A stretch of DNA of 64,000 nt from Escherichia coli (GTDB taxonomy: Bacteria; Pseudomonadota; Gammaproteobacteria; Enterobacterales; Enterobacteriaceae), in assembly GCF_011045215.1 (NCBI RefSeq), contig NZ_CP049201.1. One strand, 5' to 3'. The translations under genes were made by a program, and so were the position numbers. A model generated the notes under the pieces. The model was not told the DNA's origin, did not search any database, and saw only the letters and a list, made by a program, of their open reading frames with translations. Below, piece by piece: positions 10,816 to 54,856 of this stretch. Numbering within the stretch: position 1 is the stretch's first letter; each line of letters starts with the position of its first letter.

Positions 10816-11195
10816 TGATGTGCCACATCCGGCATGGTATGCCGGATGTGGCGTATGCTGATAAGACGCGCCAGCGTCGCATCAGGCAACCGGCTTGGGT
10901 GTTAGATGTCGGATGCGGCATAACCGACTTATTCGACCTACGGGGTGGAGCACTTCACAGCGGTGTAGGCCTGATAAGACGCGTCAGCGTCGCATCAGGC
11001 AACCGGCTCGGACGTTGGATGTCGGATGCGGCGTAACCGCCTTATCCGACCTACGGGGTGGAGCACTTCACAGCGGTGTAGGCCTGATAACACGCGTCAG
11101 CGTCGCATCAGGCAACCGGCTCGGGCGTTAGATGTCGGATGCGGCGTGACCGCTTTATCCAACCTACGGGGTGCCGCACTTCACGGCAGTTTAGC
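10816..11195. repeat. REP/BIME cluster, about three tandem ~116-bp units
   Basis: Repeated GCCGGATGCGGCG…CTTATCCGACCTACGGGG…CTGATAAGACGCG…CATCAGGCA palindromic units; the overlapping small ORFs in the track are repeat artefacts. Confidence 0.9.
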
Positions 11196-11679
11196 GAACT
11201 ACCGCGTTGTCAATTTTCTCTTCCGCCTTCCAGACGCGGTACTTCACATCTACATTGTCTGGCGTATACACCACGATCGGCAGCTTGCTGTTGTAACGCA
11301 GCATTCCAGTATCGCCCAGATACGCGGTGACAAATTTCTTCTCTTTCTTGCCATCCGGGCAGGCCATCATCGTGGAAACCGGCGAGCTAACTTTATCAAA
11401 GACATAATAATCATAGCCCCAGCCTTCCAGCGTTTTGCTTTCCAGCTTCCCGCCGAGACGATGCAAATTGCAATCGCCTTCCAGCGTCTGACCGATTAAC
11501 AGTTCTACTTTCAGGGTAGATTCATCTTCTTGCGGGGTTAACTGAATCACCTGACGCTTCATGCCTTTTTCAGCTTGTGGATAAGGCGCGATTTTTTCCA
11601 GTGGCTGGACGCTCTCTGCCGCCCAGGCGGAAGTGGTGGCGAAAGCGGCAAACAATACTGCAGGTAGAATGGTCTTCAT
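11191..11679 (-). CDS. eco: ecotin (periplasmic serine protease inhibitor)
   Basis: 162-aa [46 protein letters not shown]… matches ecotin. Confidence 0.95.
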
Positions 11680-30260: not shown

Positions 30261-31268
30261 ATGAGTCTGGATATCAACCAGATTGCTCTGCACCAGCTTA
30301 TCAAGCGTGATGAGCAGAACCTTGAGCTGGTGTTGCGCGATTCATTGCTGGAACCGACAGAAACCGTCGTTGAGATGGTGGCAGAACTGCATCGGGTCTA
30401 TAGCGCCAAAAATAAAGCTTACGGCTTGTTTAGCGAAGAGAGTGAACTGGCGCAGACGCTGCGCTTACAGCGTCAGGGCGAAGAGGACTTTCTGGCATTT
30501 AGCCGCGCGGCAACCGGTCGCCTGCGTGACGAATTAGCGAAATATCCTTTTGCTGACGGTGGATTCGTGCTGTTTTGCCACTACCGTTATCTGGCGGTGG
30601 AGTATCTGCTGGTGGCAGTCCTGAGCAACCTGAGCAGTATGCGCGTTAACGAAAATCTCGACATCAACCCAACCCATTATCTTGATATCAATCATGCGGA
30701 TATTGTTGCGCGTATCGATTTAACCGAATGGGAAACCAATCCAGAGTCGACCCGCTATCTCACTTTCCTGAAAGGGAGAGTAGGGCGCAAAGTGGCGGAT
30801 TTCTTTATGGATTTCCTCGGGGCCAGCGAAGGGTTAAACGCGAAAGCGCAAAACCGTGGGCTGTTGCAAGCGGTTGATGATTTCACTGCCGAAGCACAAC
30901 TGGATAAAGCAGAGCGACAGAACGTGCGCCAGCAGGTTTATAGCTACTGTAATGAGCAGCTGCAGGCAGGCGAAGAGATCGAACTGGAATCGCTGTCGAA
31001 AGAGCTGGCAGGCGTAAGCGAAGTGAGCTTCACGGAGTTTGCGGCTGAAAAAGGCTACGAACTGGAAGAGAGCTTCCCGGCAGACCGTAGCACACTGCGT
31101 CAGTTGACGAAGTTTGCCGGTAGCGGCGGTGGCTTGACTATTAACTTTGATGCGATGCTGTTAGGTGAACGCATCTTCTGGGATCCAGCAACCGATACCT
31201 TGACCATTAAAGGCACGCCGCCGAATTTGCGCGACCAATTGCAGCGCCGGACGTCTGGCGGCAATTAA
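30261..31268 (+). CDS. yejK: nucleoid-associated protein YejK/NdpA
   Basis: 335-aa [30 protein letters not shown]…. Confidence 0.93.
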
Positions 31269-31361
31269 TCGGTTTTGTGTTCTGAATGCCAGATGCGGCG
31301 TGAACGCCTTATCTGGCCTGCAAAAAATAGCAATACCGTAATCAGGCATAATCTGCAGATA

Positions 31362-49612: not shown

Positions 49613-49629
49613 CTTGAAACGTTTCAGCG
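49613..49629 (+). promoter_or_regulatory. Cra (FruR) operator, distal, fruBKA promoter
   Basis: CTTGAAACGTTTCAGCG, palindromic TGAAAC-GTTTCA. Confidence 0.75.
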
Positions 49630-49679: not shown

Positions 49680-49699
49680 GCTGAATCGTTTCAATTCAG
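49680..49699 (+). promoter_or_regulatory. Cra (FruR) operator, proximal, fruBKA promoter
   Basis: GCTGAATCGTTTCAATTCAG, ~20 bp upstream of the fruB ATG. Confidence 0.75.
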
Positions 49700-51799: not shown

Positions 51800-53491
51800 A
51801 TGAAAACGCTGCTGATTATTGACGCTAATCTCGGTCAGGCACGCGCCTATATGGCGAAGACCCTGCTGGGCGCGGCGGCGCGAAAAGCAAAACTGGAAAT
51901 CATCGACAATCCGAATGACGCAGAAATGGCGATTGTTCTCGGTGATTCCATCCCGAATGACCGCGCGCTGAACGGTAAAAATGTCTGGCTGGGCGATATT
52001 TCCCGGGCAGTTGCGCACCCTGAGCTGTTCCTGAGTGAAGCCAAAGGCCATGCGAAACCTTACACTGCGCCGGTCGCTGCGACAGCACCGGTTGCCGCCA
52101 GCGGTCCGAAACGCGTAGTTGCGGTGACTGCTTGCCCGACTGGCGTAGCACACACCTTTATGGCGGCTGAAGCCATTGAAACCGAAGCGAAAAAACGTGG
52201 CTGGTGGGTGAAAGTTGAAACCCGTGGTTCTGTTGGTGCGGGTAATGCAATCACTCCCGAAGAAGTAGCCGCAGCGGATCTGGTGATTGTGGCGGCAGAT
52301 ATCGAAGTGGATCTGGCGAAATTTGCTGGTAAACCGATGTATCGTACCTCTACCGGTCTGGCGCTGAAGAAAACCGCGCAGGAACTGGATAAAGCGGTTG
52401 CTGAAGCAACGCCGTATGAACCGGCGGGCAAAGCTCAAACGGCGACCTCTGAAGGTAAGAAAGAGAGTGCAGGCGCATACCGTCACTTGCTGACGGGCGT
52501 CTCTTACATGCTGCCGATGGTCGTTGCAGGTGGTCTGTGTATCGCGCTTTCTTTTGCTTTTGGTATCGAAGCGTTTAAAGAGCCGGGTACGTTGGCAGCG
52601 GCGCTGATGCAGATTGGTGGTGGTTCAGCCTTTGCGCTGATGGTGCCGGTACTGGCAGGTTACATTGCCTTCTCCATTGCCGATCGTCCGGGTCTCACGC
52701 CGGGTCTGATTGGCGGTATGCTGGCGGTCAGCACCGGTTCTGGCTTCATTGGTGGTATTATTGCGGGCTTCCTGGCTGGTTACATTGCGAAGTTAATCAG
52801 TACGCAACTGAAACTGCCACAGAGTATGGAGGCGCTGAAACCGATCCTGATCATTCCGCTAATTTCCAGTCTGGTGGTCGGTCTGGCGATGATCTACCTG
52901 ATCGGTAAACCGGTTGCTGGCATTCTCGAAGGGTTGACTCACTGGCTGCAGACCATGGGGACTGCGAATGCGGTTCTGCTGGGGGCGATCCTCGGTGGCA
53001 TGATGTGTACTGACATGGGCGGTCCGGTAAATAAAGCAGCGTACGCATTCGGTGTGGGTCTGCTGAGTACTCAAACCTATGGCCCGATGGCGGCGATTAT
53101 GGCGGCAGGTATGGTGCCACCGCTGGCAATGGGTCTGGCAACAATGGTGGCGCGTCGCAAATTTGACAAAGCGCAGCAGGAAGGTGGCAAAGCCGCTCTG
53201 GTTCTTGGTCTGTGCTTTATTTCGGAAGGTGCAATTCCGTTTGCTGCTCGTGATCCGATGCGTGTGCTGCCGTGCTGTATCGTGGGTGGGGCGCTGACTG
53301 GCGCAATCTCAATGGCGATTGGTGCGAAACTGATGGCACCGCACGGTGGTCTGTTTGTTCTGCTGATCCCTGGCGCTATTACGCCGGTACTGGGTTACCT
53401 GGTAGCAATTATTGCCGGTACGCTGGTGGCGGGTTTGGCCTATGCCTTCCTGAAACGTCCGGAAGTGGACGCAGTAGCGAAAGCCGCGTAA
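51800..53491 (+). CDS. fruA: fructose PTS EIIB'BC component FruA
   Basis: 563-aa ORF with duplicated IIB domains (…VTACPTGVAHTFMAAE…) and IIC membrane domain. Confidence 0.95.
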   Translation: MKTLLIIDANLGQARAYMAKTLLGAAARKAKLEIIDNPNDAEMAIVLGDSIPNDRALNGKNVWLGDISRAVAHPELFLSEAKGHAKPYTAPVAATAPVAASGPKRVVAVTACPTGVAHTFMAAEAIETEAKKRGWWVKVETRGSVGAGNAITPEEVAAADLVIVAADIEVDLAKFAGKPMYRTSTGLALKKTAQELDKAVAEATPYEPAGKAQTATSEGKKESAGAYRHLLTGVSYMLPMVVAGGLCIALSFAFGIEAFKEPGTLAAALMQIGGGSAFALMVPVLAGYIAFSIADRPGLTPGLIGGMLAVSTGSGFIGGIIAGFLAGYIAKLISTQLKLPQSMEALKPILIIPLISSLVVGLAMIYLIGKPVAGILEGLTHWLQTMGTANAVLLGAILGGMMCTDMGGPVNKAAYAFGVGLLSTQTYGPMAAIMAAGMVPPLAMGLATMVARRKFDKAQQEGGKAALVLGLCFISEGAIPFAARDPMRVLPCCIVGGALTGAISMAIGAKLMAPHGGLFVLLIPGAITPVLGYLVAIIAGTLVAGLAYAFLKRPEVDAVAKAA

Positions 53492-53504
53492 TAAAAGGTG
53501 TGTT

Positions 53505-53529
53505 ACAGGGCAGAAATTTACTGCCCTGT
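53505..53529 (+). terminator. hairpin immediately downstream of fruA (weak terminator)
   Basis: ACAGGGCAG-aaattta-CTGCCCTGT; poor U-tract. Confidence 0.45.
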
Positions 53530-53647
53530 ATCATTGGATGAGCGCAAAGAGAATGACCGGTTTGTGAATGTAATTTTATGAATTTAAATGGTTTTATCTT
53601 TCAGTAGAAACCTGAAACGTTCATCAAACACTAAGGTTATTTCCTCA

Positions 53648-53674
53648 AGGGCAGATTCTTTTCTGCCCTTTTTT
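53648..53674 (+). terminator. intrinsic terminator downstream of fruA
   Basis: AGGGCAGA-ttctttt-CTGCCCT-TTTTT. Confidence 0.75.
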
Positions 53675-53914
53675 AGTGTTCATGTTCTGTGCATCCCGTC
53701 ACAAATTCCTCGCTTTTGTAATTCAGGCATTTAATCGCATTTTGTGAGCCTGCTCAAATCTGCCCGCTTTGCCTCTCTGGCGGCAATTTACTTTACGTAA
53801 AACATGCATACTATGAGCACATGTTTAAATATGAACACATGTTTAAACCGTCTTTGCAGTATCTATATCCTTGTGGATTGACAGGGTTGGTAATTTTTTA
53901 CCAGAGGACGTGCT

Positions 53915-54856
53915 ATGCGCGAAAAGGATTATGTCGTAATTATAGGTTCGGCGAATATTGATGTCGCCGGATATTCACATGAATCATTAAATTATGCGGA
54001 TTCAAATCCAGGTAAAATAAAATTTACGCCTGGTGGAGTAGGGCGAAATATTGCACAAAATCTGGCGTTGCTGGGTAACAAAGCCTGGCTACTGAGCGCA
54101 GTAGGCAGTGATTTTTATGGCCAATCGCTGCTAACGCAAACCAATCAATCTGGCGTTTATGTCGATAAATGCCTGATTATGCCGGGAGAAAATACGTCGA
54201 GCTATTTATCATTACTCGATAATACCGGTGAAATGCTGGTTGCTATAAATGACATGAATATTAGCAACGCTATTACAGCTGAATATCTCGCACAGCACCG
54301 TGAATTTATTCAGAGGGCAAAGGTCATTGTCGCGGACTGTAATATCAGTGAAGAGGCACTGGCATGGATTCTGGATAATGCCGCCAACGTACCCGTATTT
54401 GTCGATCCGGTTTCAGCGTGGAAATGTGTCAAAGTGCGCGACCGTCTAAATCAGATCCACACTCTGAAGCCAAACCGCCTTGAAGCGGAAACCCTGAGTG
54501 GGATAGCGCTGTCAGGGCGTGAAGATGTGGCAAAGGTTGCCGCCTGGTTCCATCAACATGGCCTGAACCGACTGGTATTGAGCATGGGCGGCGACGGCGT
54601 TTATTACAGTGATATCAGCGGTGAAAGTGGTTGGTCTGCGCCGATCAAAACCAATGTTATTAATGTTACCGGAGCGGGCGATGCCATGATGGCGGGACTT
54701 GCTTCGTGTTGGGTAGACGGAATGCCGTTTGCCGAATCTGTTCGTTTCGCACAGGGATGTTCGTCAATGGCGCTCTCCTGTGAATACACCAATAACCCCG
54801 ATTTATCGATTGCCAACGTTATATCGTTAGTGGAGAACGCAGAATGTCTGAATTAA
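53915..54856 (+). CDS. psuK: pseudouridine kinase PsuK (YeiC)
   Basis: 313-aa PfkB-family ORF (…TPGGVGRNIAQNLALLG…GAGDAMMAG…). Confidence 0.9.
   Translation: MREKDYVVIIGSANIDVAGYSHESLNYADSNPGKIKFTPGGVGRNIAQNLALLGNKAWLLSAVGSDFYGQSLLTQTNQSGVYVDKCLIMPGENTSSYLSLLDNTGEMLVAINDMNISNAITAEYLAQHREFIQRAKVIVADCNISEEALAWILDNAANVPVFVDPVSAWKCVKVRDRLNQIHTLKPNRLEAETLSGIALSGREDVAKVAAWFHQHGLNRLVLSMGGDGVYYSDISGESGWSAPIKTNVINVTGAGDAMMAGLASCWVDGMPFAESVRFAQGCSSMALSCEYTNNPDLSIANVISLVENAECLN

Follow-up and report, generated by a model that had tools for sequence, protein, structure and literature searches.

The window (the whole 64-kb stretch of Escherichia coli DNA analysed here) contains the 3' end of the fruBKA operon and the start of the psuKGT operon. 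The last gene of fruBKA, fruA, occupies 51800-53491 (+) according to the list of open reading frames and the RefSeq annotation of strain 104 and K-12, and it ends in a tandem stop, TAATAA (53489-53494). The first gene of psuKGT, psuK, occupies 53915-54856 (+) according to the same list, RefSeq annotation and its translation. The region from 53400 to 54000 is 100% identical to that of E. coli strain 104.

Two stem-loops lie between the genes on the coding strand. Hairpin 1 begins 9-13 nt past the fruA stop codon; its core (53505-53529) reads ACAGGGCAG-aaattta-CTGCCCTGT, and flanking pairs lengthen the stem to 13 bp (53500-53534). Its folding energy is -19.7 kcal/mol (z -5.0), and none of 200 shuffles was equally stable. 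Hairpin 2 (dG -15.5, z -4.2) occupies 53647-53670, reads AAGGGCAGA-ttcttt-TCTGCCCTT and is followed by the rest of a T run, the T6 tract at 53669-53674. The two are 141-143 bp apart from start to start and are separated by a 112-nt spacer (53535-53646; 34% GC) that alignments and composition mark as inserted DNA specific to Escherichia. The pattern GGGCAG-N3-12-CTGCCC matches the 64-kb window twice, at these two hairpins only, and shuffled sequences average 0.04 matches and never reach two. A first-pass annotation had described paired hairpins with a common stem after fruA, of which only the second had a good U-tract, and both observations proved correct. The T-tract score is 0.9-1.1 for hairpin 1 (tail AUCAUUGG) versus 3.6-4.1 for hairpin 2, and a terminator scan calls hairpin 2 (9 pairs, 5 of them GC, a loop of 6 nt, then T6) and not hairpin 1. 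ACACTAA (53629-53635) and TTAGTGT (53673-53679) are complementary around hairpin 2 and extend the predicted structure in the window; K-12 lacks this complementarity, which is probably due to chance.

The DNA further downstream carries candidate regulatory sites of psuKGT. A CRP-like site, TGTGAgcctgcTCAAAT, lies at 53743-53759 (+), ~155 bp upstream of psuK (1 match versus 0.07 expected), and is conserved in the second E. coli allele described below, Enterobacter asburiae and Leclercia, suggesting catabolite control of psuKGT. At ~53801-53850 (+) ACATGTTTAAA occurs twice together with an inverted AAACATG...CATGTTT; these repeats, conserved in both alleles and in the outgroups, are a candidate operator for some regulator. 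The Cra/FruR-type consensus STGAAWCSNTHHW has 3 matches in the 64 kb versus 1.13 expected. The matches at 49615-49627 (-) and 49681-49693 (+) lie a short distance 5' of fruB, where they presumably represent its known operators. The remaining match, CTGAAACGTTCAT at 53612-53624 (+), is inside the spacer between the hairpins; K-12 reads TCAA for TGAA there, the right half-site is poor, and the match is probably weak or fortuitous.

One ancestral terminator and two E. coli alleles

Outgroups were examined by locating the C-terminus of FruA in one genome per species and reading the DNA 3' of the stop codon. Three Citrobacter genomes (L006, L007 and L030), Enterobacter asburiae (L014) and Leclercia adecarboxylata (L023) each have one canonical terminator after fruA. 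It reads AAAAGGGCAGAGATTTCTCTGCCCTTTTTT or a close variant, lies 15-20 nt past the stop codon, and has the stem found in both E. coli hairpins. psuK is directly 3' of fruA in E. asburiae and L. adecarboxylata as well, and the intergenic length is 287 bp and 278 bp, respectively, compared with 423 bp in the window and 455 bp in the B2 allele of E. coli. In a multiple alignment with Enterobacter and Leclercia, Escherichia differs by a clean insertion that comprises one copy of the hairpin and the spacer; the DNA 3' of hairpin 2 aligns with the outgroups, and hairpin 1 is at the ancestral position beside the stop codon. These comparisons show that hairpins 1 and 2 descend from one ancestral terminator.

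Within E. coli the fruA-psuK interval exists as two deeply diverged alleles. The window-type (A) allele is present in ~4,200 of 5,426 complete genomes, K-12 included, and the second (B2 or B) allele in ~1,200, among them that of the ST131 strain JJ2434. The second allele is present in E. albertii too. The two alleles diverge from the last 27 nt of fruA (window ~53464 onward; L001 4041-4563), which gives FruA the C-termini PEVDAVAKAA and PETQIVEKNA, and they are ~75% identical up to the start of psuK, a divergence far above that usual within the species. This low identity, together with the match between the B2 allele and E. albertii, suggests either that the alleles are ancient or that introgression has occurred.

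The second allele retains what appears to be the complete insert. It consists of a first hairpin, 1' (CATCATCGGGG..CCCCGATGATG, without a U-tract), a REP pair, and hairpin 2 with its T-tract. The two hairpins of the B allele have ACATCTCTGCCC in common, loop sequence included, and the two copies in E. albertii agree at 19 of 22 positions, again with the loop included. BIME-1 elements (also RIP or RIB) are reportedly made up of a Y REP, an L linker with an IHF site, an inverted Z1 REP, and flanking A and B motifs, a definition due to Gilson, Bachellier and Hofnung, Oppenheim (1993), and Boccard and Prentki (1993). They have been described at the 3' ends of transcription units. These elements are summarised in PMC3333891. 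A BIME-1 profile HMM built from units at 16 other loci matches the B2 insert over its full length (E=1.6e-41) and the E. albertii insert with E=4.7e-40; this full-length match identifies the insert as a BIME-1/RIP element. In the B allele the repeats GGGCTGAGACATCTCTGCC and GGGCAGAAACATCTCTGCC abut the 152-bp unit at a distance of 0 at both ends, the position of direct repeats in a target-site duplication. Profile match and junctions together show, by nucleotide comparison, that the B allele is a full-length BIME-1 abutted by two hairpin copies, in the place typical of such elements, between a gene and its terminator. The bracketing by a duplicated terminator hairpin departs from the described form of BIME-1.

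The window allele has no recognisable REPs and so falls outside the definition of BIME-1, and the profile has no match in its spacer (53530-53646). A global alignment of the window spacer with the B-allele BIME gives z=2.3, and 18 of 1000 shuffles align as well. An L-linker-like stretch at 53568-53594 has a score above the 95th but below the 99th percentile of its shuffles, and a stretch resembling the A motif or terminal inverted repeat, TTGGATGAGCGCAAAGA, is found at 53534-53550. The spacer is variable within the A allele. It is plausible, at p about 0.02-0.05, that the AT-rich spacer is a decayed BIME-1, and it could instead be unrelated DNA that replaced the element. Elsewhere in the window, three tandem 113-nt repeats with one REP pair each (10858-11196) look like a BIME-2 or an atypical BIME array, and a solitary REP lies at ~31.3 kb (31259-31353).

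Hairpin 1 remains a strong stem in every Escherichia allele (dG -19.7 to -27.4). In K-12 one G-C pair has become G.U, in K-12-type strains a T.T mismatch is restored to T-A, and the flanks differ yet remain complementary in all three alleles. Part of this flank complementarity in the B allele is simply the conserved end of BIME-1. A palindrome-extending template switch was considered for the CATCATC/GATGATG flanks of the B-allele hairpin and was rejected because GATGA(CAAACGCAAAATT) is the conserved left end of BIME-1 and occurs at many loci. At hairpin 1, K-12-type alleles reach T-tract scores of up to 2.0; the B2 allele, E. albertii and L004 score ~0 there. Hairpin 1 was also considered as a member of a dispersed repeat family, an idea that was abandoned: each of 4230 genomes contains it once, and a search of the window that tolerated 2 mismatches gave no additional copy.

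Terminator stem-loops at other BIME-1 sites

Metagenome contigs were scanned for one exact A-motif/Y-REP junction, which yielded 120 loci that reduce to 23 distinct sites, a sample defined by that junction and not a census. By inspection, duplication of the flanking stem-loop is clear at 9 of the 23 sites (fruA included), partial at ~5 and absent at 9. The similarity of left and right flanks is at or above the 95th percentile of a mismatched-site null at 12 sites, where ~1 is expected, and above the 99th percentile at 6 of the 23. The BIME-1 unit is 152-153 bp long, and its ends (GAGACTGATGACAAA... on the left, ...TTTGTCAACAATCTGA on the right) are imperfect inverted repeats. Both ends could be identified at 13 sites, at 7 of which the repeats lie 0-5 nt from them (p<=0.02). 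Besides the B allele of fruA, the distance is 0 at sites 4, 12 and 15 and 1-5 nt at sites 7 and 10. Since about 9 of the 23 sites (~40%) are without a duplication, the rule is not universal.

Related BIME-1 units found by BLAST at fbaA-mscS and ridA-mgtA are likewise flanked left and right by the local hairpin. The filled fbaA-mscS allele has ...AGGCCCGCTCTGCGGGTCTTTTTTTCGCCAAAAGCAA directly to the left of the BIME-1 and AGCCCCGCTCTGCGGGGATTTTTTTGCCAAAAGCAA... directly to its right, and at ridA-mgtA the element lies between ATCCGGGCTATCATGCCCGGAT and ATCGGGGCTATCGTGCCCAG with further sequence on either side. Both filled and empty alleles occur among complete genomes at fbaA-mscS (~3,700 filled versus ~1,700 empty), yajD-tsx and artJ-rlmC. 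The empty alleles at these three loci have exactly one terminator hairpin each, uninterrupted as in the fruA outgroups, and the filled alleles have the element plus a second hairpin copy of 17-37 bp. Where the duplicated hairpin is a + strand terminator, the T-tract in most cases follows the right copy and is missing from the one at the element's left end, as at fruA. Comparison of these alleles thus shows the same architecture, with single-hairpin empty sites, at loci other than fruA; the direction of change, whether insertion with duplication or deletion between the repeats, is polarised by outgroups for fruA only. At fbaA-mscS (L093) the right copy differs from the left and empty-site copies by a paired change, G.T to C-G, that keeps the stem. 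Both copies at this locus retain T7, so that two complete terminators flank its BIME-1.

These features resemble those of MITEs in that the BIME-1 unit has a length of 152-153 bp, imperfect inverted ends, a strain-variable presence, and flanking direct repeats of target DNA. The likeness does not extend to the duplication, which comprises 17-37 bp at BIME-1 and corresponds to a whole stem-loop, sometimes with its T-tract, whereas DDE transposases typically give a fixed 2-10 bp, and ~40% of the sampled BIME-1 sites have no duplication. We know of no transposition chemistry that yields duplications of 17-37 bp. The IS200/IS605 family and bacterial class C group II introns target hairpins or terminators, and class C introns insert after terminators. 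These elements are like BIME-1 in inserting beside a terminator stem-loop but do not duplicate the hairpin. In E. coli TB06052 (L090/L092), where psuK is a pseudogene, an IS200C lies between ...CTGCCCTGTATCATT and GGATGAGCG..., exactly 6 nt 3' of hairpin 1 and equivalent to window 53535/53536, indicating that a single-strand transposon has also used the site beside hairpin 1. Y1 transposases of the IS200/IS605 type, to which the REP-associated transposase is related, insert without duplicating their target (PMC3333891, PMC2817692). The mechanism by which REPs and BIMEs spread has been described as unknown, and no insertion mechanism for BIMEs is given there (PMC3333891). Target duplication by BIMEs is not mentioned in PMC3333891, PMC2817692, PMC3184786 or PMC2884548, and the older BIME literature may already describe it.

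RNA 3' ends and the function of the two hairpins

Evidence on where fruBKA transcripts end comes from K-12. Term-seq by Adams et al. (2021; PMC7815308) in M63 glucose places an RNA 3' end at minus-strand position 2259536 (Supplementary file 1, sheet M63 0.4, read count 28730.8), between ...CAAGGGCAGATTATTTTCTGCCCTTTTTT and ATTG. In the alignment of the window with K-12, which is gap-free there, this position falls on the final T of the tract that follows hairpin 2, window 53674, and the evidence therefore belongs to the K-12 orthologue of hairpin 2 and not to the strain of the window. The end is labelled 'orphan', which merely means that it lies >50 nt from any gene (PMC7815308). At hairpin 1 (K-12 22596xx) the same study has no curated 3' end in LB 0.4, LB 2.0 or M63 (PMC7815308); this is one curated K-12 dataset, and hairpin 1 of K-12 differs by a G.U pair. 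No fruA entries were found in the TERMITe and SMRT-Cappable-seq data, and no literature description of the fruBKA terminator was found. The stem and T-tract of hairpin 2 are invariant in all Escherichia alleles and conserved in the outgroups, while the loop varies. With its GC-rich 9-bp stem, 6-nt loop, T6, position at an operon end, and K-12 3' end, hairpin 2 resembles known intrinsic terminators, and these data support it as a strong intrinsic terminator between fruBKA and psuKGT. Hairpin 1, without a U-tract or a mapped 3' end, does not share this likeness.

A contribution of Rho is also conceivable at this position. Adams and coworkers called a Rho-termination region at 2259533 (score 3.54, p 3e-5; Supplementary file 2 of PMC7815308), and reads downstream of it rose from 28 to 97 upon treatment with bicyclomycin (PMC7815308). 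The call sits 3 nt beyond hairpin 2, in which respect the site is unlike a standard intrinsic terminator, and termination there may thus not be purely intrinsic. Rho action on read-through or on transcripts of psuK could account for the call. Over the 125 nt that follow hairpin 2, C is mildly enriched relative to G (C/G 1.43).

The first-pass annotation had taken the two hairpins for a weak terminator followed by a strong one that insulates fruBKA from psuKGT, and had proposed 3'-end mapping as a check. The strong half of this proposal stands, given the conserved stem and T-tract of hairpin 2 and the 3' end at its tract in the curated K-12 lists. The weak half does not, since hairpin 1 has neither a U-tract nor a curated 3' end. 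An evolved tandem terminator, in which hairpin 1 is weak and hairpin 2 a back-up selected for insulation, would account for two stable coding-strand hairpins between two operons, for the conservation of hairpin 1 structure in all alleles, and for the 4 U among the 8 nt after hairpin 1. It sits poorly with a first hairpin that fails the terminator scan, has a T-tract of ~1 versus ~4 for hairpin 2, and gives no curated end in any of the three K-12 growth conditions. A like arrangement is found at BIME-1 insertions in unrelated loci, so that selection for a two-step terminator is unneeded, and we regard this explanation as unlikely.

The interval was also suggested to hold a short transcript, for which no support was found. 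A small RNA could arise here from a gene of its own ending at hairpin 2 or as an Hfq-bound 3' UTR fragment of the fruA mRNA, because hairpin 2 and its U-tract form the usual Hfq-binding 3' module and the Term-seq end is classed as an orphan. Data derived from RIL-seq moreover contain a node named fruA.psuK.IGR with 42 chimeric fragments and 1 partner, but the RIL-seq-based classifier gives that node a probability of 0.001 (PMC8175672). A promoter scan returned no + strand match in the interval, and an Rfam scan of 53300-54100 at E<=10 gave noise only, the best hit being DapZ with 24.8 bits versus a gathering score of 56. A lack of conservation also argues against an RNA gene: Enterobacter and Leclercia do not have the interval, B2 strains and E. 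albertii have a BIME-1 in its place, and its sequence varies within the A allele. A small RNA is accordingly slightly less likely still than a tandem terminator. Two potential coding sequences were set aside, namely a 48-aa ORF at 53588-53734 (+), which begins in the non-conserved interval and crosses the terminator, and a minus-strand 'hypothetical protein' of 48 aa that appears in the annotation of one genome.

A regulatory switch is very improbable. In such a switch, the 3' arm of hairpin 1 would pair with the 5' arm of hairpin 2 once a terminating ribosome had opened hairpin 1, forming an antiterminator for psuKGT. The arms can indeed form a 7-bp duplex (1b:2a) of -13.9 kcal/mol versus -14.5 for the terminator stem, hairpin 1 begins within 9-13 nt of the stop codon, and bicyclomycin raises read-through into psuK (PMC7815308). 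However, when the 5' arm of hairpin 1 is kept from pairing, the terminator hairpin 2 still forms in the minimum-energy structure, and a local 9-bp hairpin should outcompete pairing with an arm 120 nt away. Duplication of a hairpin produces such complementarity automatically, and other BIME-1 sites have it too. Least probable of all is a chance resemblance of unrelated GC-rich hairpins sharing a 6-7-nt stem: terminator stems are short with a G-rich 5' arm, and some sharing is expected genome-wide, but the shuffles never give two matches, the copies in the B allele and E. albertii agree in the loop as well, and both hairpins match a single outgroup terminator, so that the outgroup and allele comparisons exclude it.

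Hairpin 1 itself may at most be a putative barrier to 3'-to-5' exonucleases, comparable to a REP, or a neutral relic. The REP of malE-malF is said to have been described by Newbury et al. in 1987 as a 3' stem-loop that stabilises mRNA. Like such stabilisers, hairpin 1 is very stable and closely follows the stop codon in the 3' UTR, a position in which it could halt 3'-to-5' exonucleases; unlike them, it has no REP sequence and is single-copy per genome. Its maintained stability, with the G.U and complementary flank changes, is compatible with a barrier role guarding the fruA coding region.

Proposed origin of the hairpin pair

The reading that we consider probable is that the fruA hairpin pair is a hairpin-sized target duplication left by a BIME-1 that entered the fruBKA terminator, hairpin 2 being the working terminator. 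The ancestral fruBKA operon would have ended in a single intrinsic terminator, AAAAGGGCAGAGATTTCTCTGCCCTTTTTT, 15-20 nt past the fruA stop codon. In an ancestor of Escherichia, a BIME-1 of ~152 bp and of the RIP/RIB type (a TIR-like A motif, Y REP, L linker, inverted Z1 REP and B motif) would have inserted immediately 3' of the terminator stem-loop, leaving the stem-loop on both sides of the element as a target duplication of hairpin length. We infer that this duplication was made by the insertion event itself. The left copy, hairpin 1, would thereby have been separated from the T-tract, which the right copy, hairpin 2, retained. RNA polymerase would now pass hairpin 1 and the insert and stop at hairpin 2, giving fruBKA a 3' UTR of ~183 nt. 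In the window allele and most other E. coli the insert would since have lost its recognisable REPs, so that only the paired hairpins are still visible.

A more general proposal is put forward tentatively and has less than an even chance of being right. BIME-1/RIP elements may insert in the manner of MITEs, with terminator stem-loops as their targets and duplication of the whole stem-loop (17-37 bp), the fruA pair being a footprint that has outlived its element. If so, their insertion would imply that the DNA is cut in a staggered way on the two sides of an extruded hairpin or cruciform, or that replication brings about an equivalent result. The proposal would also explain the location of these elements at the 3' ends of operons and the many 3' UTRs that consist of a hairpin without a U-tract, a BIME and a terminator.

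Terminators and BIME-1 elements were known already; what appears to be new is a BIME-1 bracketed by duplicated terminator stem-loops, and the fruA pair interpreted as such a scar. For the fru locus, the real 3' boundary of the operon is fixed at hairpin 2 (window 53674), and neither a two-step terminator nor a hidden small RNA is any longer needed as an explanation. Similar hairpins that occur in pairs in 3' UTRs can be the scars of insertions and not regulatory designs, a reading that bears on terminator prediction, 3' UTR annotation and the discovery of small RNAs. The hairpin-sized duplication at the ends of BIME-1, together with the filled and empty alleles, provides a concrete clue to the mechanism by which REPs and BIMEs spread.
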